From: Candidatus Omnitrophota bacterium
GTDB lineage: Bacteria > Omnitrophota > Gorgyraeia > 2-01-FULL-45-10
Assembly (NCBI GenBank): GCA_026387175.1
Contig: JAPLME010000011.1
Span: 1,856-65,855, forward strand
Direction: 5' to 3'
Length of the DNA stretch: 64,000 nucleotides
Below are positions 1-27,434 of this stretch, in pieces; within the stretch, counting starts at the first letter, position 1; each line of letters starts with the position of its first letter. The notes below the pieces were generated by a model. That model saw nothing but the letters and a program-made list of their open reading frames with translations, searched no databases and was not told where the DNA came from. The position numbers and the translations under genes are program-made.

Positions 1-3000
1 CATAACTGGTTTAACGGTACTGCCGGTAATGTCTACTGGACCAACGCTTCAGGTGATGGCAAATGGTCCACGGCAGCTAACTGGTCAACCGGTGTTATTC
101 CACAGACAACAGACTCAGTTGTGTTCAATGCTACCTCGACCACAAACTGTTCAGTTAACCAGGCAGCTACGGTCACCAACCTCACTCTTGACACAGGTTA
201 CACCGGCACGGTTACCTTAGGTGCAACTTCAGGACAAGATCTTACCGTAACTAACTCTATCGCCATTAACACCAACGGCGGCATACTTGTTGACAACGGC
301 AGAGTAGTGAACTTTAAGAATGTTGCAATTGTTTCTGAAAGTAATCACCTGAATTCTACTGGCAACTGGAAGCAAACAGCCAGCGGAAATATATCGGCTT
401 ATTATCCCGAAGCTTTTAATAGCCTTGAATTGGCAAGCGGAGTTACCGCGACCTTAACCAATAGCATAAGTGTGAGGAAAGTTATTCTTGGCAGTAATGC
501 TACAATTACCGGAAATACAAGCTATCGTCTTTGGATATCTCCCACGGCAGATAATTTTATTACTCAGGGCACAGGCTCAAATATTTCTTTGCCAATTCAT
601 ATAACTGGTATAACCAGTAATATAAACCAAGGCGCCTTGAATGTTTCCGGGGCTGTTTTCCTTCGTGATAGCAACAATAAAATTTTGACCATGACTGGGG
701 ATTGGAATATTGGCACGTTGACGATATGGGGAACCAACGCGACTGGCTCCGTAGTTACCATTGATACCAACGGAAATAACTTAACTATAACAGGCGATTT
801 AGCTATATCAAACGGAGCCGTCAATTATGCCAATCAACAACTTGGCAAAATCCTCTTTAAAACCGGAAATCATACAATTACAGGTGATGTATATATCCTT
901 GGCCAAGGCCAATACACCCACGGCTACATTGACTTTGGCTCAAGCACGGTGAATGTAGGGGGGAACCTTGACTTTAGATACGCCTCAGTTACTCCCGGAA
1001 CATCAACTGTAAACCTTACCGGCGCTACCACTGCCAATATCTATAGTATTGTGGATTATACTTATAAAGACGCTACCTTAGATAATGCGGTATTGAATAC
1101 AGCGCCGTTCTATAAATTAACCTCAACCGTAGCAGGGAAGACCGTTAAATTTGAAGCAGGGAAGACCGTAACGATAGCCAATAACCTAAACCTTGCCGGA
1201 ACCGGAACAGGCATCAATCTCTTAACCTTAAACTCTACCACTTCCGGCACTGCCGCGAAACTAAATGTCGCGAGCGGCGCTACAGTTACCGGCATGAATT
1301 ACTTAAGTGTCAAGGATTCCGACGCTTCGAGCGGCAAGGGTATCGTCGCATCTAATTCGACCAATGTTAGTAATAATACCAACTGGTTCTTTGGCGCCGC
1401 CGGCAGTAATTATTGGGTTAATAACTCAGGCGACGGCAAGTGGTCCACTGCCGCTAACTGGTCCACCGGTAGCGTGCCAACTTCGGCTGACAATGTTGTG
1501 CTTAACTCCGCCTCAGCTTCAAACTGCAGTTTCGATACAGGGGTGGCTAATACCACAGTCGCTAGCCTCACTCTGGACACAGGCTATACCGGCACTCTGA
1601 CCTTAGCGCAAGGTATTACGGTCACCGGAACGCTTAAAGTAACCCAAGGCACATTTGACGCCGCTACCTATAATGTAAATGCCGCTAACTTCACTTCCAC
1701 AGGAATATTGGCTCGAACACTTAACTTAGGGACAGGGAGTACCTGGACCATATCAGGTAACTGGGACTCTTCAGGCGGTAATATTACGGTTAATCCAGGT
1801 ACCTCAACCGTTACTCTCACCGGAGACGGCACAGTTAAAGCCTGTCCCAGCGTTACTACTTTCTATAACCTCTCAGCGGCCGCATCAGGCATGACCACTA
1901 CTATTGCCCGGGATCCTTCTAAGAATATGTGGGTGGCGGGGGGATGGGGCGTTAATAACTACTTTGCCTACTCTTCTGACGGGATTACTTGGACAGGCTT
2001 GGGCACAAACACATGCCTTACCACCGTCCATAACATCTGCGGGAATGGTTCTAAGTTCGTGGCGGTAGGTACTGGCCCTAGTTCCATTGCCTACTCTACT
2101 AACGGGATTACCTGGACAGGCTTGGGCACAAGTATATTCTCAGGTAATGGCGCCTTTGGCGTCTGCTGGAACGGCTCTAAGTTCGTAGCTGTAGGGCATG
2201 GCGCTAATACCATTGCCTACTCTTATGATGGCATTGCCTGGGCAGCCGCTCCAGGCAGTACAAACATATTTTCAATCAACGCAAACGGCGCCGACATCTG
2301 CTGGAACGGCTCTAAGTTCGTTGCTGTAGGAGACGGAACTAATACCATTGCCTACTCCTCTGATGGCATTAACTGGACAGGCTTGGGCACAAGTATATTC
2401 TCAAGCTATGGCAAAAGCGTTGCCTGGAACGGCACTCGCTTTATAGCAACAGGTTCTGGCAATAGTACTCTTGCCTATTCCTCTGACGGTATTACCTGGG
2501 TAGGCTTAGGCACAAGCATATTCTCAAGCTATGGCTGGGGCGTCGCCTGGAACGGCACCCGTATTATAGCAACAGGCGCTGGCACCAATACCATTGCCTA
2601 CTCTTCTGATGGTATTACCTGGGTAGGCTTAGGCTCAAGTATATTCATAACCTTCGGAGGCGGCATCTGCTGGAATGGTTCTAAGTTCGTCGCTGGCGGG
2701 CAAAGCCCTGGCAGCGCCTATTCAACTGATGGGATCACCTGGACAAGCGGTGGAGTCCCAATGGCAGTCGGCTACGGCGTTTGCTCCATCCCAGCCCCCA
2801 AACTCGTTCCACCTATCCTATCAGATGACATAAAGGTCTCAAATAACCTCACATTAGGTGGAGGTACACTCACTCGTAACGGCACCGACCAGATAGCCTT
2901 AACCTTAACTAGCGCCACCCCTACAGTAACATTAGGAGGCTCTACGATTAGTAGCGGCACAATTATCAGATACGCTCCCGCAGCAGGCTCAGGCGCTACC

Positions 3001-6000
3001 ACTGTCACTATCCCAGGAGGCGCCTACAGCGGAGCTAAGATCGAAGCCTATACTAAGCTTAATTATAGCGTCGCCCAGCCCCAAGGAGCTGTCACATATC
3101 AGTTAGGGGGGAGCATCACCTCATTAGCCAATCTAAACATCTACGCTGATGTAGGGCTACCAGCCACTACATTCAGCTTAGTAAATGGCTCTAATAATTA
3201 TAACCTTACCTCTAATAGCCTTACATTAGGTAAAGATGAAGTAACTAACGGATCTGTCACATTTAATTCAGGAAGTGGCACAGTAGCTCTACCGTCACTT
3301 ACAAACCTCGTTCCTTCCACTAATAATAGCGGCTTACACACTCTTAACCTTAACACATCCACCTGGAATGTGGCAGGGGACTGGGATACCTCAGGCAATA
3401 ACATTATACTTAATCCAAGCACCTCAACTGTTAACCTTACCGATAACGGTATACTTAAGACTAACCCCTCTACCACAAGCTTCTATAACCTATCCTGCGC
3501 GGTCACAGGTAAGACCACAACAGTTGCCCGGGACCCTTCTAAGAATATGTGGGTAGCGGCAGGCGAAGGCACCAACTCTCTTGCCTACTCTTCTGATGGT
3601 ATTACCTGGGTAGGCTTAGGCACAAGTATATTATCATACCGTGGCCGAGGCGTTGCCTGGAACGGCACCCGTTTCGTAGCAACAGGCGCTGGCGCCGACT
3701 CCCTTGCTTATTCTTCCAATGGGATTAATTGGACAGGCCTTGGCTCAAGCATATTCTCCGGCACTGGCCGCTACGTTGCCTGGAACGGCACCCGTTTCGT
3801 AACAGTAGGCACTGGCGCTAACTCCATTGCTTACTCCTCCGACGGTACTAATTGGACTGGGGTGACTACCACAAGCATATTCTCAGCCTATGGCTACGGC
3901 ATTGCCTGGAACGGCACCCGCTTCGTAGCAACGGGCAGCGGCACCAACAACTCCATTGCTTACTCCTTCGATGGCATTACTTGGACAGGCCTTGGCACAA
4001 GCATATTTTCAAGCAGTGGTACCGGCATTGCTTGGAACGGCACCCGTTTCGTGGCAGTGGGTAGTGGCACCAACTCCATTACCTACTCTTCCGATGGCAT
4101 TACCTGGACCGGTTTAGGTAAAAGCATATTCTCAGTCAATGGCTACGATGTTGCCTGGAACGGCACCCGTTTCGTAACAGTAGGCACTGGCACCAACTGC
4201 ATTGCCTACTCTTCAGATGGCATCACCTGGACAGGTTTAGGCACAAGTGTATTCTCAAGCTATGGCTACAGCATCGGCTCTTGCCCTGCTCCTAAACTTA
4301 CTCCACCCGTCCTAAGCGATGACATACCGGTCTTGAATACCCTCACCTTAGGCGGCGGCACACTCACCCGTAACGGCACCGACCAGGTAGCCTTAACATT
4401 ACGTAAGGACACCGGCAATTTCTTAGTGTTAAATAACTCCACGATCAGTAATAATGCTATTATCCGCTTCGCTCCTCTGGCTAACGCCTCAAGTCCTAAG
4501 ACTGTCTCTATCCCCGGAGGCGACTACGGCACAGCTCAAGTAGAAGCCTATGTCCAGACTAATAACGCTGTAGCCCAGCCTCAAGGAGCTATCAGCTATC
4601 AACTAGCGGGAAATATCGCGGGGGCAAACAGCTTAAATATCTACGCTGACTCTAATCTCTCCACAACCTTTGGCTTAAATAGCTACAATCTTTATACCGC
4701 TACTCCAGGGCTCCTCTATTTAGGTAAAGACTGTGCTCAAGGCGCAGTTACCTTTAATTCAGGTGCAGGCGCGGTAACCTTAGCCGCAACACCTCTCTCA
4801 AGCATAGTCGCGGATAACGCCGGAAGCCACACGCTCAATATGAACTCTTCCACCTGGAATATCTCCGGTGACTGGTGTCCTGAAGGTCTGACAAGCGGCA
4901 CCTCCAGCTCACTCAGTGTAGCCCCCAGCACATCCACTGTCAATATCACCGGCACCGGCACTACCACAATCTATGGCTCAAAGACCGCTACTCCTTCGAC
5001 ACCGTTTAATAACCTGTATACTCCTGTCGGCGGCTTAACTGACAAAACTATCAAGGTCAATGCCGGAAGCACACTTCAGATAGCCGGTATTCTGGGATTG
5101 CGGGGACAGGGCGAGAGCAGCCCGCTTAATTTCCAAAGCACTACCGCAGGAACTGCAGCTAATCTTAACGTTCTAGGCTCGACCGCCAATATGCAATACC
5201 TTAATGTCACAGACTCCAATGCTTCGGGCGGGAAGAAGATTCTCGCGTGTTCTTCCACTATTGACACCTACAGCTTGAATCATAACTGGGTTAACGGCAT
5301 TGTCGGTAATGTCTATTGGACCAATGCCTCTGGCGACGGCTTATGGTCCACCGCGGCTAACTGGTCCACAGGAGCTGTGCCGGTTTCGACAGACTCAGTC
5401 GTATTCAACGCTACCTCGACCACACCCTGCTCGGTTAACCAAGCAGCGACGGTTACAAACCTCACTATGGACACAGGATACACCGGCACAGTGACTTTAA
5501 GCGCAACGTCAGGACAGGATTTAACCGTTACAGGCTCTATTACCATTAGTACCAACAGCGGTACGCTAGTAGATAATGGACGAACAGTTAATTTCAAGAA
5601 TGTCTCTATTGCTTATGAAAACACGCCCGTGCATCTTACTTCTACGGGTAATTGGAAAATGATTTCCAGCGGAACTATTTTTGGCCCTCAAGATAGTTCT
5701 AAAATTAATAGCCTTGAGCTGGCAGCCGGAGTTACCGCGAATTTGTTGACAAATTGCACTGTTAACATAAGAAACCTTATCCTTGGAAATAATTCCGTGC
5801 TTACCGGTTATTATATGATAATTGTGCCTACAACCAATAATTTTATTACCCAGGGTACCGGAGCAACTATTTCTGCGACTTTAGAGATTTGTCCAGGTGA
5901 CATGAACCAGGGCGCTCTGACTACATCCGGACCTGTAAAGATTACCTGGGGCGCTAACCGTACTTTGACCATGACCGGAGATTGGAATATTGGTGGATAC

Positions 6001-9000
6001 CTTATGGTATTTGGTTCATCAAGTTTTGGCACAACCGGAATGATGACCCTGGACACTAACGGCAAAAATCTTACTGTAGGCGGTGACTTACAATTAGGAA
6101 ATAGTGACTCTTCGTATGCCAACGATTTTCTCGGAAAAATTCTGTTTAAGAACGGTACCCACACTATCGGAGGCAAAATATTTGTTATGAACGGAAACAC
6201 TCCTTCAACCTGCTACACCCATGGCTACTTTGACTTTGGCCAAAGCACGGTAAACGTAGGGGGGAACCTTGACTTTAGGTGCGCCTCAGTAACTCCCGGA
6301 ACTTCAACCGTAAATCTTACCGGCACTACTGCCGCCACGATTTATTCAATAGTTGACTATGCCTATAAAGACACCATCTTAGACACTCCGGTATTGAACA
6401 CAGCGCCGTTCTATAATTTAGCCTCAAGCGCGGCAAGCAAGATCATTAAATTTGAGGCAGGCAAGACCGTAACAGTAGCCAATAATCTAAGCCTTGCCGG
6501 TGCAAGCGGTAACCTCTTAACCTTAAACTCTACTACCGCGGGCACTGCAGCTAACCTGAATATTTTAGGCACAGCCACCGGTATGAACTACCTGAGTGTT
6601 AAGGACTCCAATGCTTCAGGCGGGAAAGGTATCATCACTTATAACTCCACAAATGTTAGCAACAATACCAACTGGTTCTTTGGCACCGCCGGTAATAATT
6701 ACTGGCTCAATGCCTCCGGCGACGGCTTGTGGTCCACACCCGCTAACTGGTCCACAGGCATTGTGCCGGTCTCGGGCGACAATGTTTATTTCAACACGAC
6801 CTCAACTTCAGACTGCAGTTTCGATACAGGAGCGACCAATACGACAGTCGCAAGCCTTACCTTAGATACAAATTACACCGGTACCCTGACCTTAGCGCAA
6901 GGTATTACAGTCACCGGAACACTTAAAGTGACCCAGGGGACATTTGACGCCGCTACCTATAATGTAAACGCCGCTAACTTCACTTCCACAGGAGCCTTAG
7001 CTCGTACACTAAACTTAGGAACAGGGAGTACTTGGACCATTGCAGGCAACTGGGACTCATCAGGAGGTAACATCACAGTTAACCCCGGTACTTCAACAGT
7101 TACTCTTACAGGAACCGGCACAGTTAAAGCCTGTCCCAGTGTCACTACTTTCTATAACCTCTCAGCGGCCGCGTCAGGCAAGACTACGACGATTGCCCGG
7201 GATCCGTCGAAGAATATATGGGTGGCGACTGGCGTTGGCGCTAACACTCTTGCCTACTCTTCTGATGGTACTAATTGGACAGGCTTGGGCTCAAGTATAT
7301 TCTCAGGCAATGGTTACGGCGCTGCCTGGAACGGCACCCACTTCGTAGCAACGGGCTATGGCACCAACTCCCTTGCCCACTCTTATGACGGTATTATCTG
7401 GACTGGCCTAGGCACAAGTATATTCTCAACCCAAGGCCTTGGCATCTGTTGGAACGGCACCAAGTTTGTGGCTGTAGGAGAAGGCACTAATACAATTGCC
7501 TACTCCTCTAATGGGATTACCTGGACAGGCTTAAGCTCAAGCATATTCTCAGTCTTTGGCGATGGCGTTGCCTGGAACGGCACACGCTTCGTCGCAGTAG
7601 GCTATGGCACCAACTCCATTACCTATTCCCCCGATGGGATTACATGGACTGGGGTGACCGGCAAAAGTATATTCTCAGATTACGGCATGAACATTGCCTG
7701 GAACGGCACCCGCTTCGTCGCAGTAGGCCAAGGCACCAACTCCCTAGCTTACTCTTCTGACGGTATTATATGGATAGGTTTAGGCACAAGCATATTCTCA
7801 ACTTCTGGCCGCGGCGTCGCCTGGAACGGCACCCGCTTCGTCGCAGTAGGTTGGGGCACCAATTCCATCGCTTACTCTTCTGACGGCATCACCTGGACAG
7901 GACTCGGCTATAGCGGATTATCATCCCACGGCAACAGCGTTGCCTGGAACGGCACTAGCTTTGTAGCAATAGGCTTAGGCACTAACAATATTGCCTACTC
8001 TTCCGATGGCATTACCTGGACTGGAGTAACCGGCACAAGCATATTCTCAGTCAATGGTGTTGGCGTTGCCTCTTGCCTTGCCCCCAAACTCACTCCACCC
8101 ATCCTTAGCGATGGCATAAAGATCACAAATGGTCTTACACTAAACGGCGGCACACTCACTCGTAACAGCACCGACCAGGTAGCCTTATCCTTAACGAGCA
8201 ATACTCCTACATTAACATTAGGCTCTTCCACTATCAGTAATAGCGCTATTATTAGATATGCCCCTGTGGCCACTTCAGGCGCTACCACCGTCACTATCCC
8301 CGGAGGCGCTTACTCAGGCGCCAAGATAGAAGCTTATTCTAAGACTAATTATGGTGTTACCCAGCCTCAAGGGTCTATAACATACAAATTAGGGGGCAGT
8401 ATCACCTCAGCAGCTAATCTAAACATCTACGCAGATGTAGGACTACCTAGCACTACATTCAGCTTAGTAAATGGCGCCAGTAACTATAACCTCACCTCCA
8501 CATCCCTTACAATAGGTAAGGATGAAGTAACTAACGGCACTATTACATTTAACTCTGGAAGCGGCACAGTAGCTCTTGCCTCACTTACAAACTTAGTGCC
8601 TTCCACTAATAATAGCGGTCTACACACATTAAACCTCAATACATCCACCTGGAATGTGGCAGGGGACTGGGATACATCAGGCAATAACATCATACTTAAT
8701 CCAAGCACCTCAACCGTTAACCTTACAGGCTCAGGTACACTAAAGACCAGCCCGAACACTACAAGCTTCTATAACTTATCCTGCGCGGCATCAGGGAAGA
8801 CCACTACAGTCGCCAGAGATCCTTCTAAGAATATATGGGTGGCGGCAGGCCAAGGCACCAACTCTCTTGCTTATTCTTATGATGGTATTAACTGGGTAGG
8901 TTTGGGCATAAATATATTCGCGATCAACGGCTATGGTGCTTGTTGGAATGGCTCTAAGTTCATTGTCGTAGGCCAAGGCACTAACACCCTTGCCTATTCC

Positions 9001-12000
9001 TCTGATGGCATCAACTGGACAGGCTTAGGCACAAGCATATTCTCAACCCGAGGTTATGGCATTGCCTGGAACGGCACCCGTTTCGTAGCAGGAGGCGGCG
9101 GCGTTAACTTCCTCGCCTACTCTTCTGACGGTACTACTTGGACCGGTTTAGGCACAAGCGTATTTTCAACCGCCGGCTATGGCGTCGCCTGGAACGGCAC
9201 CTGTTTTGTATCAGTGGGCAGCGGCACTAATTCCATTGCTTACTCTTCCGATGGAATTACTTGGACCGGTTTAGGCACAAGCGTATTTTCAACCGCCGGC
9301 AATGGCGTCGCCTGGAACGGCACGCGTTTCGTTGCAGTAGGCTATGGCACTACCTCTCCGGGTACTAATTCCATTGCCTATTCTTCCGATGGAATTACTT
9401 GGACCGGTTTAGGCACAAGCATATTTTCGACAGGAATTGGTTACGGCGTCGCCTGGAACGGCACGCGTTTCATAGCAACTGGTGGAGGCACCAACTCCCT
9501 TGGATACTCTTCCGATGGTATTATCTGGACAGGCCAAGCCGTATTCTTAAGTCAAGGCAATGGTGTCTGCTGGAACGGCTCTAAGTTTGTAGCCGTAGGA
9601 TATGCAGGCGGCACTAACTCTATCGCTTACTCCTCCGATGGTATTATCTGGACCGGCTTAGGCTCAAGCATATTCTCATACTATGGTCGTAGTGTTTGCT
9701 CCAGCTCCGCCCCGAAGCTCACTCCGCCCATCTTAAGCGACGACATCCCTGTCCTGAACACCCTCACCTTAGGCGGCGGCACACTCACTCGTAACGGCAC
9801 CGACCAGGTGGCCTTAACCTTACGTAAGGACACCGGCAATTTCTTAGTCTTAAATAACTCCACAATCAGCAATAACGCTATTATCCGCTTTGCTCCTTTG
9901 GCTAACGCCACAAGCGCTAAGACCGTCTCTATCCCAGGAGGCGACTATGGCACCGCTCAATTAGAAGCCTATGTCCAGACTAATAATGCTGTCGATCAGC
10001 CTCAAGGACCTATCAGCTATCAGTTAGCGGGAAATATCGCGGGGGCAAACAGCTTAAACATTTACGCCGACTCTAACCTCTCCACCACCTTTGGCTTAAA
10101 TAGCTACAATCTCTATACCGCCACTCCCGGACTCCTCTATTTAGGTAAAGACTGCGCTCGAGGCGCAGTTACCTTTAATTCAGGCGCAGGCGCGGTAACC
10201 TTAGCCGCTACACCTCTCTCAAGCATAGTCGCTGATAACGCAGGAGCTCACACACTCAATATGAATAGCTCCACCTGGAATATCTCCGGTGACTGGTGTC
10301 CTGAGAGCCAGACCAGCGGTACCTCAAGCGCTCTAAGCGTAGTCCCTGGCACATCCACTGTTAATATCACCGGCACCGGCGCCACCACAATCTATGGTTC
10401 AAAAACCGCCACTCCTTCGACGCCGCTTTATAACCTTTACACACCCAGCGGCGGCTTAGTGGATAAGGTTATCAAAGTTAATGCCGGAAGCACGCTCCAG
10501 ATAGCAGGGACCTTGAGATTGCAGGGCCAGAATTCAGGCAGCCCTCTCTATTTCCAGAGCACCGCCTTAGGTACGCCCGCTAGCCTGAATCTTCAAGGCT
10601 CAGCCGTGAGTATGCAATATCTTGTTGTCAAAGATTCCGACGCCACCAGTGGAAAGAAGATCCTTGCCTACGACTCCACTATCGACACTTACAGCTTGAA
10701 TCATAATTGGATCGGCGGTACAGTCGGTATCGTTTACTGGACCAATGCCTCCGGCGACGGCTTATGGTCCACGGCTGCTAACTGGTCCACGGGCGCTGTG
10801 CCGGTTTCGACAGACTCAGTCATATTTAATGTTGTCTCAGGTTCAAGCCCAACCTCAAACTGCTCGGTTAACCAGGCAGTTACGGTTGCTAACCTCACCC
10901 TTGATACCGGCTATACCGGCACAGTTATCTTAAGCTCAACTTCAGGGCAGGATTTAACTGTTACCGGTTCCATCAATATTAATACGAACGGCGGCGCACT
11001 GAATGATAACGGCAGAAATGTAAATTTTGTGAATGCTTCTATTGTCAACGAAGGAAACCGTTTATATTCCAATGGCAACTGGAAGATGACAGCCAACGGT
11101 AATATTAAAAATGCTAACGGCGGTAATATATTTAATAAAACCTTTGAGGTGGGAGCCGGAGTTACCGCGACTTTAACAAGTGATATTTGGACGAAAGGTC
11201 TCATTCTGGGGAATAACGCTGTTGTTACAGGAGGATCAACAATAGTATTTTATTATCCCCCTAATGATTTCATCGCTCAAGGCGCAGGCTCAGTTATTTC
11301 TTCTACTATAGATATCGATCTAAGTGGTAACAGAAGCCAGGGCGCTTTGACTACAACTTCAAGCGTAAACTTTTATTGGCATACTGCTACTTTAACTATG
11401 ACTGATAATTGGCATATCGGTGGATATCTTTCTATTTACAGCGGTTCTTCTGGCGCAACTGCCATCTTAGATACTAACGGCAAAAATCTTACTGTAGACG
11501 GAAATTTATACTTGGGGAATACCGTTTATTATGGTCAAATTCTTTTTAAAACTGGCACGCATACAATAGGCGGAAATATGTATGTCAACCAATCAGGCAG
11601 CCCTAGCCACGGTTATTTTGATTTTGGCTCAAGCACAGTTAATGTAGCAGGTAATGTCGATTTCCGTTATGCTTCGGTAAAGCCTGGCACATCAACAATA
11701 GTGTTTACCGGTACCAATGCCGCAACTATCCGCGCGCTCACAAGCGATGATACGTCCTTTGACGCGTTAAGCCTAAACAATACAGCGCCGTTCTATAAAT
11801 TAACCTCGACCGTTGCAGGCAAGACCATTAACTTTGAAGCAGGGAAGACCGTAACGGTAGCGAATAACTTAACTCTTGCCGGAACCGGGATGGGCGCTAA
11901 TCTCCTGACCTTAAACTCTACCGTAGCAGGCACTACCGCTAATTTAAATGTCGCGGGCACAGCCACCGGCATGAATTACTTAAGCGTCAAAGATTCCGAT

Positions 12001-15000
12001 GCTTCGATCGGGAAAGGTATTGTCGCTTATAATTCTACAAATGTTAGCAATAACACCAACTGGTATTTTGGCGCCTCGGGTAATAATTACTGGCTCAATG
12101 CCTCAGGCGATGGCAAGTGGTCGACGCCGACTAACTGGTCCACGGGAATTGTGCCGACCTTGGGCGACAACGTCTATTTTAACACCACCTCAACCTCAAA
12201 TTGCAGTTTCGATACGGGAGTGGTTAATACGTCAGTTAATAGCCTCACTTTAGATACGGGTTACACCGGCACCCTTACTTTGGCTAAAAATATCACGGTT
12301 ACAACAGCCCTCACTGTAACCCAAGGCACATTTAACGCCGCTACCTATAATGTAAACGCGGCGAACTTCACCTCCACAGGAGCCTTAGCCCGCGCATTGA
12401 ATTTAGGAACAGGAAGTATCTGGACCATCTCAGGTAACTGGGATTCTTCAGGAGGCAACATTACGGTTAACCCCGGCACATCAACCGTTACTCTTACAGG
12501 AGACGGCACGGTTAAGGCTTGTCCCAGCGTTACTACTTTCTATAACCTCTCAGCCGCCGCCTCAGGCAAGACTACGACAATTGCCCGGGATCCTTCTAAG
12601 AATATATGGGTGGCAGGAGGTTATAACCCTAATAGCGCTGCTTACTCTGTTAATGAAGGAGTTAACTGGACCAAATCATCAAGTTTGGCAAGTATACTGG
12701 ATCAGGCTTGTCAAGGTATCGCCTGGAACGGCACCCGCTTTGTAGCAATGGGTAGTACTTCCAATTCTATCGCCTATTCTTCTGATGGTGTTACATGGAT
12801 AGCAGCGCCTAACTCAAAAAACATATTTTCAACCCGAGGCTACGGCATCGCCTGGAACGGCACCCGTTGGGTAGGAGTAGGCGGTGGCATCAATTCCATT
12901 GCCTATTCTTCTGACGGTATTATCTGGACAGGTTTAGGCACAATAAGCACAAACATATTCTCAATCTATGGCACCAATATCGCCTGGAACGGAAACCGCT
13001 TCGTAGCAGTAGGCAATGGTACGAATAACACCCTTGCTTATTCCTCTGACGGAATCACCTGGACCGGCTTAGGTACAAGCGTATTTTCGTCCAACGGCCG
13101 CGGTCTTGCCTGGAACGGCACCCGCTTCGTAGCCACGGGAAGCGGCACCAATTCCATTGCCTATTCCTCCGACGGCATTAATTGGATAGGTTTAGGTACA
13201 AGCGTATTCTCAAATAACGGCACAAGTGTCGCCTGGAACGGCACCCGCTTCGTAGCCACGGGAAGCGGCACCAATTCCATTGCCTATTCCTCCGATGGCA
13301 TTAATTGGACAGGTCTGGGTACTGTAAGCACAAACATATTCTCAATCTATGGCACCAATATCGCCTGGAACGGAAATCGCTTTGTAGCGGTAGGTTACAG
13401 CGGCGGTGGCACCTCCGTTGCCTATTCTTCCGATGGCATTATCTGGACGGCAGCGACCGTGTCCGGGATATTCTCAGGTGATGGATATGCTATCGCCTCT
13501 TCTCCTGCCCCTAAACTTACTCCACCCATCCTAAGCGATGACATAAAAGTCTCAAATGCCCTCACATTAGGTGGTGGCACACTCACTCGTAACGGCACCG
13601 ACGTAGTAGCTTTAACATTAACTAGCGCTACTCCTACAGTAACATTAGGCGGTTCCACCATCAGTAATAACGCGATCATAAGATACGCTCCTGTAGCCGG
13701 TGCAAGTGATACGATTGTCAATATACCAGGAGGTGCCTACAGCGGAGCCAGGATCGAAGCCTATACCAAGCGTAATGGAAGCATTACACAGCCTCAAGGA
13801 GCCCTCACGTATCGGTTAGGAGGCAGTATTACCTCGGCGGCTAGCCTAAACATCTATGCGGATGTGGGCCTGCCTGCAACCATCTTTAACCTATATGATG
13901 GCTCTAATAGCTATAATCTTGCTTCTTCCGGACTTATATTAGGTAAGGATGAAGTTACCAATGGCAATATTACTCTTAACTCAGGGACAGGTACGGTAGC
14001 TCTTAATTCACTTACAGGGCTCGTTCCTTCCACTAATAATAGCGGCTCACATATCTTAAATCTTAATTCATCCACCTGGAATGTAGCAGGGGACTGGGAT
14101 ACTTCAGGCAATAACATCGTACTTAATCCGGGCACTTCAACAGTTAACCTTACAGACACAGGCACTATAAAGACCAGCCCGAATACTACAAGCTTCTATA
14201 ACCTCTCAGCCGCGGCAAACGGGAAGACCACCACAGTTGCTCGTGACCCTTCCAAGAATATCTGGGTGGCGGTAGGTAACGGCGCCAACACCATTGCCTA
14301 TTCTTCCGACGGAATCACATGGACAGGCTTAGGCGCAGGCATATTATCAAGCTACAGCTATGGCGTCTGCTGGAACGGCTCCAAGTTCGTGGCGGTAGGG
14401 CAAGGCACCAACTCCATTGCCTACTCTTCAGACGGCATCATCTGGACAGGAGTGACCGTTCATAGCGTATTCTCAACCAACGGCCGTGGCGTCTGCTGGA
14501 ACGGCTCCAAGTTCGTGGCGGTAGGGCAAGGCACCAACTCCATTGCCTACTCTTCAGACGGCATCATCTGGACAGGTTTAGGTACAAGCATATTCTCATA
14601 TGGCTATAACGTCTGCTGGAACGGCTCCAAGTTCGTGGCTGTAGGAGGTAGCATTAACTCCATTGCCTACTCCTCTGACGGCATTATCTGGACAGGCTTA
14701 GGCGCAGGCATATTCTCACCCTATAGCCATGGTGTCTGCTGGAACGGCTCCAAGTTCGTGGCTGTAGGAGAAGGTAACAACACCATTGCCTACTCTTCCG
14801 ATGGTATTACCTGGACCGGTTTAGGCTACAGTATATTCTCACCCTATGGCCATGGCATTGCCTGGAACGGCTCCAAGTTCGTGGCTGTAGGAGGTAGCAT
14901 TAACTCCATTGCCTACTCCTCTGATGGCATTACCTGGACCGGTTTAGGCACAAGCTCATTCTTATACGGCCGTGGCGTCTGTTCTATCCTAACTCCCAAG

Positions 15001-18000
15001 CTTACTCCGCCTGTCTTAAGTGATGATATACCGGTCCTAAATACCCTCATCTTAGGCGGCGGCACACTCACTCGTAACGGCACCGATCAGGTAGCTTTAA
15101 CCTTGCGTAACAACGATAGCGATTCCTTAGCTTTGAATAGTTCCACGATCAGTAATAACGCGATTATCCGCTTTGCTCCACCGGCTCCCGGCGCAATGGA
15201 TGGAGTAGCGGAGCCTATCACTGTAACTATCCCGGCAGGTAACTATGGCACAGCGCAAGTAGAAGCTTACGCTCAGTTTAATAATAGCGTCGATCAACCT
15301 CAAGGAGTTATCAGCTATAAACTGGCAGGAGATATCACCGCGGCGGGCAGTTTAAATATCTACGCGGATGCAGGGCTCCCTGCAACCACCTTTAGCCTGA
15401 ATGACGGCGCGAATAATTATAATCTTTACAGCTCTACTCCGGGGCTCATATATTTAGGTAAAGATTGCGCTCAAGGAGCCGTTACATTTAACTCCGGATC
15501 GGGCACGGTAAATGTAACATCCTTTGGTATCATTCCGAATAATGCCGGCAGCCATACCGTAAATCTTAATTCATCCACATGGAACATTTCCGGAGACTGG
15601 CAGCCGGAAGGAGAAGGGAACAGCGCTTCGAATTTGAATGCCGGGACCTCCACCTTCCACTATATCGGCACCGGCGCCGCCACCTTATATGGTCTAAAAT
15701 CCGGCCCTAACATTAATACTATGCCTTTCTACAACCTGACCTCTACGGCGGCAGGCAAGACACTCAACTTTGAGGCAGGCAAGACCGTAAAGATAGCCAA
15801 TAACATAAGCCTCACCGGCGGATCGAGCAAGATGCTATTACGCAGTACTAGCACCGGTTCCTACTGGAACATAAATGTCGCGCCCGCGGCCACAGCCACA
15901 TTCATGAGCTATCTGGATGTTAAAGACTCCGACGCGAGTTCCGGCAATACTATCGCCGCCACAGCCTGTATCGGCAGTACACAGCATAACCTTAACTGGA
16001 CCTTTAGCACAGGCGGCGCTGCGATCTGGATCGCCGATGGCGCTAAGAACTGGTCCGACGCCACCGCCTGGAGCACGGTCAGTGTTCCCACGACGACCGG
16101 AACGGCGGAGATCCTATTTACAGGCGACCATAAGGGAGCTTGCACTATAAATGCCGCGGCAAATGTAAAGAGCATTAATATCCTGAGCGGTTACACGGGA
16201 ACCATCACCCAGGCCGGCACAGTTACTGCCGGGTCGGGCGGCTACGCTCAGGCAGACGGCGTATTTAACTGCGGAGGACAGGCTGTTAACGTAAACGGGC
16301 CGTTTACATTGTCCGGAGGGACATTCGACGCCGCAAACTCGACCATAGCAATAACCGGCGGTAATATCAATCTCTCGGGCGGCGCGTTCGCTCCCGTCGC
16401 CTCGACGGTGACGCTCTCCGGGACCTGTGCCATTAATTCCGATATCCCGGCCCTTAATATCATGACCTTTAATCCCGGGACATATACCATTGCCGCGGGC
16501 AAGACCATCAGCGCGCCCGCCAACAGCTTACTGAGCTTCGCCGGCACCGGCACATCGAACATGGTCACATTAAGGAGCTCCGCGCCCGGGACGAGATGGA
16601 ACCTGGCTAATGCCTCAGGCTCCACAGTTACGCCTGTCTATACGGATGTTATGGATTCTAACGCTTCTAATCTTATCTCCGCCGCTAATTCCAAGGACTC
16701 CGGAAATAATATCAACTGGGTGTGCACCGGCACGCTCACTAATGCCAGTGTCCTGCCGGCATCATTGGTCGCGGGGGTAAGCGGCAATGTAACGGTGAAC
16801 TTTACCACGGTAAACCCTATTCCGAATAACGGCAAGATCGTAGTTACCCTCCCCAGCAACTTTACGTTTAATTCCGGCGGCGCCACGGCAGTCTCCGGCG
16901 CCCCGACAGGCATAGATGGAAATTTCTCAGTATCAGTGGAAGGCCCATCGGCCATCATTACCAGATCGGGCGGCACATCCGCGGGCGCGGGAGCCAAGTC
17001 GATCATTCTCACTAACATAAAGAACCCGACTGCCCCTTGCACTACAGGGACGTATTCTATCGCCACCAGAACTTCCGCGGATGCTTCTATCGACAGCTTG
17101 ACCGGGATCGCCGGAAGCGTTATCACTGCCGCCAGCGTGACGAGCTGGGACCTGAATATGAATGCCGGAACTCTTACGCTTAATTTCAACGCCGGTATAA
17201 CCGCCGCCAGCCTTGCCGCTACAGGCATAACGATACAGAACACAATTGCTTCACCGAGCGCTTCCTATACATTAACCGACAGCACTACCGCAAGCTCAAA
17301 CGGCACGGCTATCACGATCACGTTATCCGATACGGACAGAAATACGATTAAGGCTACCGCTAATCTCGCGAAAGCCCAGAACAGCAGTTGCCTCAGCATC
17401 ACCTCGGCAGCCTTTATGGATCTGTATAATAACCCTATAACAGCTATCACCGGATCTTTGGCGATGAATGTCACGAACTATACGACGGATATCACGGCTC
17501 CGGGGTTGTCGAGCTGGACGCTGGATATGAATACGCATATGGTGGAGATGACCTTTAACGAACCTGTCGCCATAAGCTCATTCGATCAGACGAAATTCAC
17601 GATACAGGATGACTCGGGCCATGCTTATACTTTAGCCGCGTCGAACAATACTTATATCGAGGACCCGTATGACAATATGCTGGCGGGCGGCTATGCTATA
17701 GGCTCGACTAACAACATGAAGCTGCGCATCAAGCTTACCACGAAAGATTTTAACGCGCTGGTGGACGACGCCAATATAGCCAAGGCGCGCTCATCCTCAT
17801 ATTTAGTTATCGCTACGGAAAGCGGTGTGCGGGACAAAGCGACTTTAGCCAACGCACTGGCCGCCATCCCGGCGACGAATGCCGCGAGCTATACCGCCAA
17901 CTCCGTCGTCGCCGCCCAGTTCTACGTCACAACATCATCCTATGCGACCGCAACGACACTGACAGCCGGAACCTTTAAGGATATAGTCATAAAGGCGTAT

Positions 18001-21000
18001 GATAACCTTGGTTACCGCACCCCGGCTTACACAGGGGACAAGACGGTGGTCTTCTCAGACGCCGGGCTTTCCGCGGATCAAATCGCGCCTAAAGCCAAAG
18101 ACAAGAATAACGTGTCTATAGTTTTTGGTACCGGCACCACGATCGCCTTCACAAACGGAAGAGGCACAAGCACTATTACCCTGTATAAGAAAGAGGTGGT
18201 GCTGATAAAAGCGACCGTTGGCGCTATTACCACCGCCGATAATTATTCCCTGACGGTAACCGTTAATCCGGATGTGAAGGCTAAGCTGGTCTTCACCACA
18301 CAGCCGTCCGCCACCGGCATTATCAATAGCGCTTTAACCCAGCAGCCCGTCGTAGTCATCAGGGACCAATACGGCAACCGGACCGCGGATACGGATGAAA
18401 TCCAGATTAACGCGTCGACCGCCGGAATATTTTTTAATCCTGCCGCCGGCACGTTATCGGCGACTTCTAACCCGTTGGCCGCGGTAGACGGAGAAGCGGT
18501 ATTCGCCGGGGTTAAATACAACATCGCGGAGACGATATATATATATGCAAGTTCCGGTAATCTTGCCGGCGCCTATTCCGGGGCTATCGAGCTTAGCTCA
18601 GGCGTGTCCACTACAGTGGAGGCTGCCGCCCAGCCGCAGGCAAGCTTCCCGCTCATTCCTACGAATGACATCGAGACCGAGAAGTTCACTGTCCTGAAAT
18701 TTAAGATTAAAGACGCCGGTGATGACGGGACTCCTACTCTGATAGACAGAATAAAGATAGCCATTACCGGCACGGCCCAGCCGAGCGCGTCGACCGATAT
18801 CGCCTGGGCGGAATTAAGGGCGAATAACGGGGGAGACCATCAGGTTACTTTTGTTGCCGGGCCCTCAGGTTTCGAGGTTGACGGCTCCACCACTTATATC
18901 GTTTTCGGAAACGAACCTGATGCCCGCAGCGATTCGACCCTGGGCGCAATAGCGGCCGACGGTACGATACCGGATGGCGGCGAGATAGAATATACGGTAA
19001 AGATCTATATGAAACCCTCGAAGTTGACCGCCACGGACAAACAGGGCTACAATTTCACTACGAATGAGTCGCTCATCGGTGTAGATATGGGCGTATCGTC
19101 GAGGATGACGACAGACAGCGGGAAGATAACGCCTGTTGTCGGGCAGATCACGGTGAATGTATCGAATTTTGAGATCGTGGATCAGACCCCGCCTAATAAT
19201 GCCGCGATCAACGTTATCGCGGGCATCGCGTCTTATCTCCAGGTAAGGGCCACTGATAGCAATAAGAATATAGACATAGACTATGCCGGCGTGAAGAGCC
19301 TTATCTTCTCGGGATTGAGCTCGATAAACGGTTATACCCCCACGATAGGAACCACGACTAAGGTAACCTTTGGCGCCCCTACTTCAATAAATTTCGTAGC
19401 GGGCCAGTCATATAATTTAACAGGTACCGCGGTTGCCTTAACTGCTTATGCCAAAGGCACGGAAAACCTCAGGGCAGCGGATTATAATAAAACTCCGCCG
19501 CCATACGGCGTCTTCCCCTGCGCGGTGACGGTGGACAGCACCACGGCAAACAGTATAGGGCTAGCCGCAGGCAACAACCAGAGCGGATTGGGAGGGCGCG
19601 CATTGTCCAATCCTTTAGCGGCTATCGTTCGCGATCTTTACGGCAACCCCGTTAATTCCGGCACAGCCGTAACTTTCGCGGTATCGAGCGAGCCTGCCGG
19701 CACAACAACTCACGCCGGTTTGGATACACCCACGACTTCTACCGGCTCAAACGGCCAGGCTTCCACTCATCTTACTCTGGGCAACGCTAAAGGCACATAT
19801 CAGGTAACGGCAACATCCGGCTCGCTTGCCGGATCTCCCGTTACCTTCAGCGCCTCCGCCCGCGTCCCGGCGACACTATACATATTTGGCGGCAATCACC
19901 AGTCGGCGGTTGTGGCCACTCAGCTGCCGCTCGCTCTTGTGGTCCAGCTTTTAGATAGCGAGACTATCCCTCAGCCTATCGCGGGTGAGACCATAAACTT
20001 CGCGATAAAGGCCCAACCCACCGGCGCGGGCTCTTTCCTGTCAAGCTCTACGGCTGTCACTGACGCGGAAGGCAAGGCTCAGGTACCTCAGATCCTATTC
20101 ACATTGGGAATGATAGCGGGAACTGACGCTTATGAGGTCAGGGCGACTTACTCGAATTTAACGCCGGCTGATTTCACTGCCACCGCTGCCCCATCGCCGG
20201 CTTATAAGGCGGTTTTGGACGGCCCGGCGTCCGTGAATGCGGGTATTGTCGCCACGTTCAGTATAAATATTAAGGATACCTACGATAACGCGAGCACCAT
20301 TGCCACAACACCTATGGCATTTAATATTACCGCCACTCCGTCTCTGGGGGCGTTTTACAGCGATGCCGCGTGTACGAGCGCTCCGATCACTACGATGACC
20401 GTTCCGGGCGGAAGCAGTACAGCGACGTTCTATTTCAAAAGCTCCGTAACTGGAACCGCTAACATTGCAGCTACCACTACAGATGTCAGATTGGATGCTG
20501 ACCATCGGGTCGGTTCCATCACCGGCTTCACTGTTATGCCGGAAAGCCTGCATCACTTTACAGTTACCGCGGCAAATACGGACCCGATGACAGTAGGTGA
20601 GCCAAGGACGCTCAGCATAAAAGCCCGTGATATATATGATAACGTGAAAACCGATTTGAATGCCACTTTTAATGTAACATTCTCCGGTGCCACCGTCTCT
20701 CCGTCTCCCTCGAGCGCAGCGCTGGGCACGGCGCCGACCTGTTCGGGCCACGGCAGTGAAGCCGTAGGCGCTAACATAACAGGCACACCCGTGGCGTTTG
20801 GCCAGAGCACAAGCATAAGTTTCGCCAATGGCGCGGCAACCACCATATTTACGCCATATAAGGCCGAAGCAGCGCAGATCACAGCGACCTCAGGCATCAC
20901 TACGCCGACTCCTTTAAGTTTAACGGTAAAACACGGCGCCGCGCACCATCTGAAATTCCATGATAATATTCTCAGCCCCCAGACCGCGGGCACAGCCTTT

Positions 21001-25053: not shown

Positions 25054-26415
25054 ATGACAAGACGAAGAATGAAAATCATAGGCATATTATTGCTGCTTAT
25101 TTTCATCTCAAGCGCGGGTTACGCGGATGTTAAGCTGAAGATAGCCATTGTCAACCCATCCCCGACAGATAGACAGACCTCACCCATAAGGTACGACCTT
25201 CCTAAGGGTATCGGCCCGGAACAGGTTATCGATATAGGCAAGCTGGAGATGAAATATGATTTTGACAAGGGCAATTATTACCTTGCCGGCACCGTGACGC
25301 TCGAAGCGTCGGAGAGGAAGGTCCTCGAGATAGCGATCCGCGATGTCTGGGGCATCCCGGAAAAAGACCTGGATAATTTAAAGAGCCACACGGATATGTT
25401 GGTGAAAAGGCTGAAGGATACAAAGCATTTCAAAGCCGGCGCCGAACTCTCTAAAAATATTATCAAACAGCTGGACACCATGATCACGGAAGAGAAAACG
25501 GCCGGCGCGAATACGCGGGAGCGTATAAACCAGTACTATGAGAATGAGGTGGTCCTGAGCGAGGTCAAAGAAAATATAGGCATGCTCGAAAACCTGGTCC
25601 TTGACGCGGGCGGCGTCGTAGAGGACAGGGTCCAGATACCTACCACCCTCGCGATTCCTTTAAGGGGGGAATCTCTCTCGAGCGACAAAGATATTATCGA
25701 ATTAAAAATAAAGGCGGTTAACCCATCGACAAAAACAAAACAGATCACGCCGGTAAGATATTCCCTGCCGGCCGAAATAAGCCCCAGATATATAATGGAC
25801 AGAAACGGCCTTAATATGGCCTACGATTTTGATAAACAATGCTTTTACCTTTACCAGGACGATTTGGAGCTGGGCCCGGAGCAGTCCAAGGAGTATGTAG
25901 TAAAGATAAGAGACATATGGAATATATCAGATACAGAATTGGAAGCGCTCAGGTCGCATACCGATAATATAATGCTGCTTCTCCAGGGCACCGACTATTT
26001 AAAGCAAGCGCAGGTCTCCGCGGATAAGGTCAGCGCCAATATTGACGATATAGTCAGGACTCAAGCCGCCAAGGTTTCGGCCATGGAACATATAGCCTAT
26101 TACCGCGATAATGTAAAGTTACTGCGGGACGTTAAAAAGATGATAGCCGAACTGGAAAAGCTTGTCAGCCAGAGAGGTGTGACTGCCGGCGTTACGGTGA
26201 AGTGGCCGGAAGAAGGCGGAGGAGGGCCGCTGGCAAGAAGGGCCAAGGGCTATAAAGGGTTGGACCTGATAGCTAAATCCATCTTCAGGGGGCAGGCCCC
26301 TACGGTTGCCACCACCTGGAAGGTAATTTTTGTAATAATCGGTTTCATAGGAATTATTGCCGCATTTTTCTTCGCGGTATGGTATATTCAACTGAAGAGG
26401 GCGGGGAAGAAATAA
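25054..26415 (+). CDS. Hypothetical exported, membrane-anchored protein with an internal tandem duplication of about 200 aa (453 aa)
   Basis: GAGG RBS 8 nt upstream. It lies 22 nt after the giant ORF stop. N-terminal signal peptide (MTRRRMKIIGILLLLIFISSAGYA) and C-terminal TM (VIFVIIGFIGIIAAFFFAVWYI + RAGKK). The two halves align (DVKLKIAIVNPSPTDRQTSPIRYDLP versus IELKIKAVNPSTKTKQITPVRYSLP; LDNLKSHTD versus LEALRSHTD). Confidence 0.6.
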   Translation: MTRRRMKIIGILLLLIFISSAGYADVKLKIAIVNPSPTDRQTSPIRYDLPKGIGPEQVIDIGKLEMKYDFDKGNYYLAGTVTLEASERKVLEIAIRDVWGIPEKDLDNLKSHTDMLVKRLKDTKHFKAGAELSKNIIKQLDTMITEEKTAGANTRERINQYYENEVVLSEVKENIGMLENLVLDAGGVVEDRVQIPTTLAIPLRGESLSSDKDIIELKIKAVNPSTKTKQITPVRYSLPAEISPRYIMDRNGLNMAYDFDKQCFYLYQDDLELGPEQSKEYVVKIRDIWNISDTELEALRSHTDNIMLLLQGTDYLKQAQVSADKVSANIDDIVRTQAAKVSAMEHIAYYRDNVKLLRDVKKMIAELEKLVSQRGVTAGVTVKWPEEGGGGPLARRAKGYKGLDLIAKSIFRGQAPTVATTWKVIFVIIGFIGIIAAFFFAVWYIQLKRAGKK

Positions 26416-26426
26416 TAAAGGCTGTA

Positions 26427-26660
26427 ATGTTTAAAGCCACAATCGTAACTCCCAATAAAGTATTGTTCGATGGTGAGGCCTGGAGCGTTTTTTTGCCCGG
26501 GGCTACCGGTGAGTTTGAAATTCTGGAGATGCATAAGGCGATCGTGAGCCTTTTGCGTCAGGGAAATATTGTGATTAACTGGGATATAGAGATACCGGTA
26601 ACCAGCGGCGCGGTCAGGATGTCCGGCGATGAGCTGGTGGCGATAGTAGAGTCAGATTAG
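26427..26660 (+). CDS. atpC: F-type ATP synthase epsilon-like subunit, N-terminal beta-sandwich domain only (77 aa)
   Basis: MFKATIVTPNKVLFDGEAWSVFLPGATGEFEILEMHKAIVSLL matches the epsilon N-domain pattern (GEA..V.LPG..GEFGIL.GH). The start was moved from the track's 26379 to the ATG at 26427 to avoid overlapping the upstream gene. The protein lacks the C-terminal helical hairpin. Confidence 0.55.
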   Translation: MFKATIVTPNKVLFDGEAWSVFLPGATGEFEILEMHKAIVSLLRQGNIVINWDIEIPVTSGAVRMSGDELVAIVESD

Positions 26661-26662
26661 AG

Positions 26663-27422: not shown

Positions 27423-27434
27423 AGAGGCGCTGAT

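Follow-up and report, generated by a model that had tools for sequence, protein, structure and literature searches.

Six predicted beta-propellers built on a short Asp-box motif in a giant Omnitrophota protein, and the large, mostly unannotated family to which they belong

In beta-propellers of the Asp-box (BNR) type, the third and fourth strands of the blade are joined by a hairpin with a conserved S-x-D...W sequence. A form of this motif that is one residue shorter, the s-Asp-box, was described by Quistgaard and Thirup in 2009 with the consensus S/t-X-D/n-X-X-X-W/f/y and was always located between the third and fourth strands (PMC2716378). It was reported from five-bladed propellers of GH32 and GH43 and from CBM32 domains, usually in one or two blades, and the canonical and short forms were reported to interchange at the same blade position in structures 3sil and 1y4w (PMC2716378). 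A further propeller of relevance is that of BamH (Bt3727), a DUF6242 family member of the Bacteroidota BAM complex, which is a surface lipoprotein consisting of an Ig-like domain at the N-terminus and, at the C-terminus, a six-bladed propeller that is exposed on the cell surface and contacts other BAM subunits; DUF6242 was reported as confined to Bacteroidota (10.1101/2025.01.31.636011). Among the Omnitrophota, genes for giant or very long proteins with secretion/pilus and sugar-import neighbours have been read as serving prey or host adhesion and glycan use (10.1101/2023.11.21.568195; 10.64898/2026.06.07.730766), with a 'tandem-repeat scaffold' class of such proteins being defined in the latter study. 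Here, a 64,000-nucleotide (nt) stretch of a Candidatus Omnitrophota bacterium genome (contig JAPLME010000011.1, positions 1,856 to 65,855, hereafter the window) was analysed, in which a single giant gene was found to encode six arrays of a short repeat with an Asp-box-like motif.

A unit of 123 nt, or 41 amino acids (aa), was identified in six arrays between positions 1906 and 15003, comprising 40 blades in total and lying in one reading frame rather than in separate genes. An earlier sequence-only reading had placed six arrays at 1921-14985, with about seven blocks of 42 aa in each. The arrays themselves were recovered; the count of seven held for four of them, with two containing six (7, 6, 7, 7, 7, 6 in order), and the modal unit was shorter than proposed, the distance between consecutive motifs being exactly 41 aa in 21 of 33 blades. 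Tandem Repeats Finder detected the 123-nt periodicity at all six arrays with 70-85% matches. Each array starts with A-R-D-P-S-K-N-(I/M)-W-V-A and ends with (A/T)-P-K-L, giving the following limits, all on the forward strand:

1906-2805, forward: predicted propeller array 1, seven blades (motif map, Tandem Repeats Finder)
3526-4299, forward: predicted propeller array 2, six blades, six-bladed model (motif map, Tandem Repeats Finder, AlphaFold2 (AF2))
7195-8091, forward: predicted propeller array 3, seven blades, closed seven-bladed model (AF2, Foldseek)
8812-9720, forward: predicted propeller array 4, seven blades (motif map, Tandem Repeats Finder)
12583-13518, forward: predicted propeller array 5, seven blades, motif of blade 1 degenerate (YSVNEGVNW) (motif map, Tandem Repeats Finder)
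14239-15003, forward: predicted propeller array 6, six blades, holding the longest exact repeat of the gene (motif map, Tandem Repeats Finder)

The motif [YH]-S-x-[DNE]-[GE]-x-x-W was found to occur 39 times in six clusters, with one further blade carrying a degenerate copy. Its core, S-x-[DN]-G-x-x-W, was matched by 39 of the 40 blades and is one residue shorter than the canonical S-x-D-x-G-x-T-W, as had been noted from the sequence. Thr precedes the motif Trp in 11 of the 21 canonical blades, its place being taken by Asn or Ile in the others. Both variants of the second half of the blade that had been described, AWNGTRFVA and CWNGSKFVA, do exist; they were found not to alternate and instead to group by array, with arrays 2 and 5 containing the A type only and array 6 nearly all of the C type. 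Blade pairs share a mean nucleotide identity of 70% (maximum 85%) and a mean aa identity of 64%. The statement that near-identical stretches of 25-30 nt recur dozens of times proved to be overstated, the commonest exact 25-mer having four copies and the commonest exact 30-mer three, while the 23-mer cited as an example has five exact copies and 20 when up to three mismatches are allowed, against none in 100 shuffles.

The fold of array 3 was predicted with AF2 using an alignment of this array with the other five and 44 database relatives. The resulting model (mean predicted local distance difference test score (pLDDT) 94.3, predicted template-modelling score 0.92) is composed of seven repeats of a four-stranded unit, with the number of blades equal to the number of motifs. 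When the model was read against the sequence, strand 1 of the blade corresponded to G-x-G-V-A-W followed by an N-G turn, strand 2 to R-F-V-A-V-G followed by a G-T-N-S loop, strand 3 to I-A-Y-S followed by an S-D-G turn, and strand 4, which is short, to T-W-T-G, after which comes the long loop L-G-T-S-I-F-S-x-x-G. In every modelled blade the S-S-D-G-I-T-W motif (in general form Y-S-S-D-G-x-x-W) makes up the hairpin between strands 3 and 4, and the W-N-G turn lies between strands 1 and 2. The first strand of the modelled chain is strand 2 and the last is strand 1 of the same blade; the ring would thus be closed by pairing of the terminal strands, which places the two ends of the propeller next to each other. 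Modelling of array 2 with its flanks gave six blades, with pLDDT of 77-93 over the propeller part.

Comparison of these models to the Protein Data Bank (PDB) using Foldseek supported the same assignment. The top matches of array 3 were all propellers, the best being a seven-bladed designer protein with a template-modelling score (TM) of 0.74, followed by YWTD and Kelch propellers. Six-bladed propellers were the best matches of array 2 (target-normalised TM, TMt, of 0.64-0.70), namely nidogen (0.70), a designed Kelch protein (0.66) and Keap1 (0.65). The proposal that the arrays form beta-propellers is therefore borne out for both blade numbers, and the modelling of a single array that had been suggested as a check returned a closed propeller rather than a fold of another kind. 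On these predictions, the six arrays are six beta-propeller domains, four of them seven-bladed and two six-bladed.

In consensus, in length and in its modelled position between strands 3 and 4, S-S-D-G-I-T-W fits the s-Asp-box, and the short motif is in that respect not new. A relationship to the canonical motif was also apparent among relatives of the arrays, in which a canonical-length S-x-D-x-G-x-x-W was found to replace the short motif in phase. Among 270 family proteins, 4,413 short and 297 canonical-length motifs were counted, with 211 of the 297 in phase with their neighbours. One such propeller, of relative P0068, contains both forms (I-A-Y-S-L-D-G-N-K-W, I-A-Y-S-E-D-N-G-I-N-W and T-A-Y-S-T-D-N-G-Q-T-W), the last of which gave a sub-threshold match to Pfam BNR and Sortilin-Vps10. 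The occurrence of both motif lengths in phase provides direct support for descent from the Asp-box.

The arrays therefore share with Asp-box propellers the fold and the conserved hairpin, and with s-Asp-box proteins the length, the consensus S-x-D-x-x-x-W and the interchange of the two forms in relatives. They differ from the former in being very regular (41 aa, 64% mean identity), Asp-box propellers being typically irregular. From the described s-Asp-box proteins, in which usually only one or two blades carry the motif and the propellers are five-bladed, they differ in that all 40 blades carry a copy and the propellers are regular and six- or seven-bladed; in addition, a Gly directly follows the Asp and the Thr before the Trp is often retained.

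Scans with Pfam, NCBIfam and PHROGs of the arrays, the stalk, the N-terminal modules and the C-terminal region gave only one match above threshold, a short 'Amnionless' match outside the arrays, and no Pfam or NCBIfam model reached threshold on the arrays. Pfam BNR (PF02012) had no match on the arrays of the window and none among 50 family members scanned singly, and membership of the standard BNR sialidase repeats was rejected on this basis. In the same 50 members, DUF6242 was matched in seven (best E = 2.1e-7), F5_F8_type_C in five over a short stretch, and Kelch_6 in one. The suggestion of a distinct propeller family consequently stands in part: the arrays are not standard BNR repeats and no curated model covers them above threshold, but the short motif had already been named as the s-Asp-box.

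DUF6242 is the nearest curated profile. Scoring against this model covered arrays 1, 2 and 3, with a Pfam set used without the newer DUF6242_C model; arrays 1 and 2 scored 14.7 and 20.6 bits, below the cut-off of 29, and array 3 had no match at E<=0.01. A relative with DUF6242_C on record (P0074) matches array 3 at E = 1.4e-49, and phage relatives are labelled as DUF6242 by UniProt. The C-terminal domain of BamH is likewise a six-bladed propeller, but BamH is a Bacteroidota protein with an Ig-like domain and one propeller, whereas six propellers are present here in a giant Omnitrophota chain. While DUF6242 is confined to Bacteroidota as reported, the array family was found in many phyla and in viruses.

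A PDB search with the single sequence of array 1 gave no match, whereas a profile of 50 sequences matched PDB sequences of a designed Kelch protein (E = 4.5e-10) and Keap1 (about 3e-3) and no sialidase. Kelch proteins (Keap1 and the designed SAKe proteins) are thus the best PDB profile matches, sharing a pattern of hydrophobic strand, G-x-G, Y and W, and six-bladed Kelch domains are among the best structural matches (TMt about 0.65). However, neither the S-x-D-G hairpin nor the W-N-G turn is a feature of Kelch proteins, whose motifs are 44-56 aa long as against 41 aa for the blades described here. Pfam Kelch models had no match on the window arrays, and the match in one of the 50 members was at E = 5e-4. 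Kelch family membership was rejected given the near-zero Pfam support, a blade that looks too short and the differing motifs, and the profile similarity is regarded as distant and amplified by the idealised consensus design of the matched proteins. The Pfam matches to F5_F8_type_C cover approximately 16-23 residues, and that at residues 18-40 of array 3 overlies the motif itself. These matches, together with faint ones to Glyco_hydro_43_rel among relatives, can be attributed to the s-Asp-box that both families contain; the F5_F8_type_C matches were treated as local and were not taken to indicate such a domain, and a CBM_X2 match is probably of the same local kind.

The family is not peculiar to this locus. 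With array 3 as query, at least 2,999 proteins at E<=1e-3 were obtained among 8,000 candidates scored, nearly all of them labelled 'hypothetical'. A profile search of 1.84 billion cluster representatives gave 42,697 at E<=1e-3, 29,511 at E<=1e-10 and 10,335 at E<=1e-30, with a fringe of the family being already labelled DUF6242 or DUF6242_C. Many members are giants with multiple propellers, such as a protein of 7,015 aa with 29 matched stretches, and up to 80 motifs per protein were counted among the 270 family proteins; the cluster annotation of the largest is 'hypothetical protein' only. Relatives of approximately 600 aa with 13 blades are common and are probably two propellers in tandem.

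A search of species-representative genomes with the six-array alignment gave matches in Patescibacteria, Spirochaetia, Acidobacteriota, Proteobacteria, Nitrospinota, Thermus, Oscillospiraceae, Verrucomicrobiota and one Woesearchaeote. In Candidatus Yanofskybacteria (Patescibacteria; MGJK01000008.1, 3232-12801), an open reading frame (ORF) of at least 3,190 aa was identified with 34 S-x-[DN]-G-x-x-W motifs, the best segment being 67% identical to array 3. This protein shares the propeller and not the cassette stalk described below, with an approximately 90-aa module in common at 31-38% identity. Closely related propellers are in this way common to two lineages of ultrasmall host-dependent bacteria, the Omnitrophota and the Yanofskybacteria.

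The domains to which relatives are fused include Peptidase_S74 (a tail-fibre chaperone), Laminin_G_3, and InlB-type repeats with a peptidoglycan-binding domain. When predicted viral structures were compared to the array 3 model, two proteins were identified at TM 0.90 with 39-40% identity. The same comparison also picked out phage proteins bearing an 'intramolecular chaperone auto-processing domain', one phage protein annotated as a 'DUF6242 domain-containing protein', and Hokovirus and Klosneuvirus proteins with collagen repeats. Five cultured phages were found to carry the family, in one of which the protein is annotated as 'host specificity protein'. The fold is the same in these tail-fibre and giant-virus proteins, and the homology is clear; there, however, one or a few propellers are carried on a trimeric or collagen-like fibre, while here six lie along a single bacterial chain with a stalk for which no homologue was detectable.

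Alignment of the 21 canonical blades showed ten near-invariant positions (Y1, S2, G5, W8, G10, L11, N26, G27, G34 and G36), and these conserved residues are structural. At the nine most conserved positions other than Trp, different synonymous codons were used in 43% of blade pairs, indicating that the residues are kept by selection and not by recent copying. Positions 18, 19, 21 and 35, in contrast, differ in 86-90% of blade pairs, with a preference for Tyr, Arg, His, Asn and Ser; the first three belong to the loop between strands 4 and 1, and position 35 to the loop between strands 2 and 3. In the standard propeller topology both of these loops belong to one face of the disc and the turns between strands 1 and 2 and between strands 3 and 4 to the other, so that the W-N-G and S-S-D-G turns would be on the side of the termini and the variable residues on the side away from them.

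The propellers are 60-73% identical in every pairing. Positional orthology of the odd and even propellers across the super-repeats of the protein (see below) was looked for and none was found. At the nucleotide level, 10 of the 21 canonical blades had their nearest neighbour within their own array, and only 2 of 21 had it at the corresponding index of a different array. That nearest blades are often in the same array and rarely at the same index, along with the lack of any pairing preference among propellers, suggests amplification or exchange of blades within arrays after the super-repeats had been copied. Propellers have been described as being continually re-amplified from single blades, with which amplification within arrays would fit (PMC9218822). 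The longest exact repeat of the giant gene measures 90 nt (14361-14450 and 14487-14576) and spans two adjacent blades of array 6; as this array is also the most homogeneous of the C-W-N-G-S-K-F-V-A type, recent blade-to-blade copying or gene conversion is suggested there.

The arrays belong to an ORF that is open in frame 1 from the first nucleotide of the window to a stop at 25032, and its 5' end and the N-terminus of the protein consequently lie outside the window, with the protein exceeding 8,343 aa. A 'start' at 121 in the ORF list is not real, there being no upstream stop in frame 1 and the first 40 codons resembling the internal repeat. No transmembrane helix was found in the visible 8,343 aa, no 19-residue window having a Kyte-Doolittle hydropathy above 1.6. 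The parts of the protein were mapped as follows:

1-25032, forward: giant ORF, truncated at the 5' end, >8,343 aa, rich in Thr, Gly, Ser and Asn (frame 1 open from nt 1)
22-5301, forward: super-repeat 1, about 1,760 aa, two W-S-T modules and two predicted propeller cassettes (motif map)
5302-10722, forward: super-repeat 2, about 1,807 aa (motif map, identity)
10723-16008, forward: super-repeat 3, about 1,762 aa (motif map, identity)
2806-3525, forward: inter-propeller stalk of super-repeat 1, 240 aa, made up of what follows the propeller in cassette 1 and what precedes the propeller in cassette 2
8092-8811, forward: inter-propeller stalk of super-repeat 2, 240 aa
13519-14238, forward: inter-propeller stalk of super-repeat 3, 240 aa
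16009-25032, forward: non-propeller C-terminal region, about 3,000 aa, with an Ala/Thr/Gly-rich, partly charged tail

The arrays had been described as being deployed in pairs, and this was confirmed by the presence of two cassettes in each of the three super-repeats of roughly 1,780 aa, which are 67-75% identical at the aa level (75% between super-repeats 1 and 2, 67% between 1 and 3). Counting residues from nt 1, the propellers start at 636, 1176, 2399, 2938, 4195 and 4747. The motif W-S-T-x-x-N-W-S-T-G-x-x-P was located at residues 22, 481, 1782, 2244, 3589 and 4040, and the non-repeat C-terminal region begins with a seventh, degenerate copy (residue 5351). In its extended form, Y-W-x-N-x-S-G-D-G-x-W-S-T-x-x-N-W-S-T-G-x-x-P-x-x-x-D-x-V, it opens six beta-rich modules, two per super-repeat; it was observed at 1-192 and 5344-5469, with further copies near nt 1441, 6730, 10765 and 12118. 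The Pfam match to Amnionless was obtained on the first 640 aa (34.9 bits against a threshold of 30.4) over approximately 45 residues only, and seems to reflect a short motif in common rather than a genuine Amnionless domain.

Each cassette of approximately 540 aa consists of the propeller with about 60 aa before and about 185 aa after it. The preceding flank ends with T-T-x-F-Y-N-L-S-x-A-x-x-G-K-T-T-T-(I/V), and the following flank starts with P-P-(I/V)-L-S-D-D-I-x-V-x-N-x-L-T-L-G-G-G-T-L. Elsewhere in the protein, the similar motifs F-Y-x-L-T...A-G-K-T and I-A-N-N-L-x-L-x-G are only about ten residues apart, and since flank-like motifs adjoin each other where no propeller is present, the propeller may be read as an insertion into a beta-rich stalk. 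The three inter-propeller stalks, each of exactly 240 aa, are 77-83% identical and so better conserved than the propellers themselves. No homologue of the stalk at 8092-8811 was found at E<=1e-3 in a search of 5.8 billion sequences, which was limited by its word index. In the AF2 model the stalk is all-beta and of low confidence (pLDDT 50-75), the alignment for this part having consisted of six paralogous rows only.

The C-terminal region at 16009-25032 gave no Pfam or NCBIfam match above threshold, and its part at 16009-22500 no PDB sequence match. Near the C-terminus, a 27-nt tandem repeat of 2.1 copies (24556-24612) was observed to encode a low-complexity tract rich in Gly, Thr, Ala and Ser, while the sequence upstream of this tract, within the last approximately 250 codons before 25032, is rich in Ala, Val, Thr and Lys and heptad-like. 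These segments may act as a flexible tether or in oligomerisation.

Downstream of the giant gene, the order of genes is a 453-aa ORF, an ATP synthase operon, a secretion-like operon, a TolC/HlyD/ABC-2 exporter, and LamB with sugar import. The principal features are:

26379-31455, forward: F-type ATP synthase operon (an epsilon-like subunit, b and delta (OSCP) in one 238-aa protein, c, alpha, gamma and beta)
31495-39972, forward: operon resembling type II secretion or type IV pilus systems (Pfam matches)
46874-58439, forward: TolC-like protein, HlyD-type adaptor and ABC-2 exporter with two ATPases and two permeases, then a LamB porin, a periplasmic sugar-binding protein and an ABC importer

For the ATP synthase beta subunit (30052-31455), the named matches share 64-85% identity and are all from Candidatus Omnitrophota/Omnitrophica, with the closest matches at up to 93%; no ATP synthase a subunit was seen in the window. 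The 453-aa ORF (25054-26415, forward) begins 22 nt past the stop of the giant gene and has no Pfam match. The exact protein was recorded on nine contigs and directly follows a fragment of the giant gene in all four of the places shown, and the two proteins may be partners. Within the secretion-like operon, genes were identified for GspE, GspF, an MA-family peptidase, GspG, three proteins with the pilin N-terminal methylation motif, GspK, a PilM-PilN fusion and PilO. The MA-family metallopeptidase gene (34477-35253, forward) lies between gspF and gspG, and a single 505-aa protein (37897-39414, forward) combines the PilM and PilN domains. The three proteins with the methylation motif are likely minor pseudopilins. 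No secretin (GspD) gene was found in the window. This operon is possibly the export or display machinery of the giant protein.

Comparison to the published Omnitrophota giant proteins (West-Roberts et al. 2023, 10.1101/2023.11.21.568195; 10.64898/2026.06.07.730766) showed the same phylum, a very long repetitive protein of extracellular type, and genes for type II secretion/pilus and sugar import nearby. With 40 blades in six arrays and a secretion/pilus flank at 31.5-40 kb in an Omnitrophota genome, the protein corresponds to the 'tandem-repeat scaffold' class. The hallmarks of the 'Archaeovorin' and 'Dockerin-type' classes, many transmembrane regions with a SecA DEAD-like domain or else dockerin and TSP3 repeats, are missing from the 8,343 aa that can be seen, and the protein is to this extent unlike those classes, although the gene's 5' part lies beyond the window. 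The propeller described here is mentioned in neither of the two studies.

From these observations, we consider it probable, if by no means certain, that the propellers are multivalent adhesion heads of a giant secreted or surface protein that bind the surface of another cell. The giant protein would be secreted or displayed at the surface as a fibre, with each propeller sitting as a knob in its beta-rich stalk cassette, and the six propeller faces, being slightly different from each other, would act together as binding heads. The targets would be molecules on the surface of a host or prey cell, with glycans or glycoproteins as the probable ligands; the binding of a ligand or glycan, as had been suggested from the sequence, is plausible. 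Several points weigh against this interpretation. The N-terminus lies outside the window, so that a signal peptide or anchor was not seen, and the secretion locus is upstream of the published giant genes but downstream here, with the ATP synthase operon in between. The placing of the variable loops on one face is taken from standard propeller topology, and the knob-on-stalk geometry derives mainly from the sequence, the stalk model reaching only the low pLDDT given above. The viral and phage contexts support binding by association only, and BamH, the closest characterised relative, is without known function (10.1101/2025.01.31.636011).

It is also conceivable, though on balance unlikely, that the propellers are structural or protein-docking modules that contribute to a lattice or sheath or dock a partner in the manner of BamH, and do not bind foreign surfaces. 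The closest named Pfam family is DUF6242, within which the six-bladed propeller of BamH contacts other BAM subunits, propellers are common scaffolds for protein interaction (PMC9218822), and the profile similarity to Kelch domains, which bind peptides, is compatible with peptide ligands. The similarity to DUF6242 is nonetheless below the cut-off for arrays 1 and 2 and lacking for array 3, the N-terminal Ig-like domain of BamH is absent, and the co-occurrence of the family with tail-fibre chaperone, collagen-like fibre and lectin-type domains points to outward-facing recognition. The high variability on what would be one face among the six copies also fits diversified targets better than one fixed partner.

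Far less probable is a catalytic role, in which the propellers would be glycoside hydrolases (of sialidase, GH43 or GH74 type) and would break down cell-wall glycans of prey or host. Cell-wall degradation has been proposed for Omnitrophota giant proteins (10.1101/2023.11.21.568195), GH74 enzymes appeared low in the Foldseek lists, and some relatives have faint precomputed matches to Glyco_hydro_43_rel. However, no glycosidase model reached threshold on the arrays, and the F5_F8_type_C and GH43-related matches are best explained by the motif, as described above. The blades are in addition near-symmetrical and without the blade-specific conserved acidic or basic residues that an active site requires. 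The s-Asp-box glycosidase propellers classified by Quistgaard and Thirup are five-bladed, with the motif in only one or two blades (PMC2716378).

The sequence-only reading had further warned that the repeats were a hazard to assembly. A short-read Logan contig (SRR25046533_3058, 24,252 nt) showed no mismatches over the 21,266 nt compared and ends at window position 15150, which is 147 nt after the last array, and three other short-read contigs with the downstream gene break further inside the giant gene. The ending of a contig just past the last array fits with the repeats hindering short-read assembly, and the warning has some support to this extent, with nothing pointing to an artefact in the arrays themselves. 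The same contig, being from an independent public assembly, reproduces the 3' 9.9 kb of the giant gene without mismatch. That the arrays are an artefact of collapsed or chimeric repeats, or part of a decaying pseudogene, is hardly credible despite the repetitive nature of the region and the early end of the short-read contig, given a frame open over 25,032 nt, copies that are diverged in nucleotide sequence with no exact repeat above 90 nt, three stalks of identical length, conserved residues encoded by different codons, and the agreement of the two assemblies over the 3' part.

Returning to the adhesion heads favoured above, a broader and more speculative proposal can be made, which we regard as possible but would not presently favour. 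The arrays could represent a major unrecognised branch of the Asp-box superfamily, with an s-Asp-box in each blade of regular six- or seven-bladed propellers, that serves as a shared and fast-diversifying recognition head in the tail fibres of phages, the fibrils of giant viruses and the giant adhesins of ultrasmall bacteria that depend on a host (Omnitrophota and Patescibacteria). New specificities would arise by amplification and exchange of blades within arrays, and in the protein described here the head would be inserted in a lineage-specific beta-stalk with no detectable relatives.

The fold, the short motif and the genomic setting of these propellers have each been described before, and this is not a new kind of system. 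The departure from the published picture is the full complement of s-Asp-boxes in regular six- and seven-bladed propellers, in a family that recurs in viral proteins of fibre and tail-fibre type and in giant proteins of host-dependent bacteria. At E<=1e-30 the family has more than 10,000 clusters, yet no curated profile covers the family properly, and it is for this reason annotated as 'hypothetical' almost everywhere. With a profile built for the family, tens of thousands of proteins would gain an annotation, among them candidate receptor-binding proteins of phages and giant viruses and candidate adhesins of uncultured host-dependent bacteria. For the Omnitrophota, the propeller offers a concrete, expressible domain of approximately 300 aa with a high-confidence structure prediction, which could serve to probe the attachment targets of these cells.

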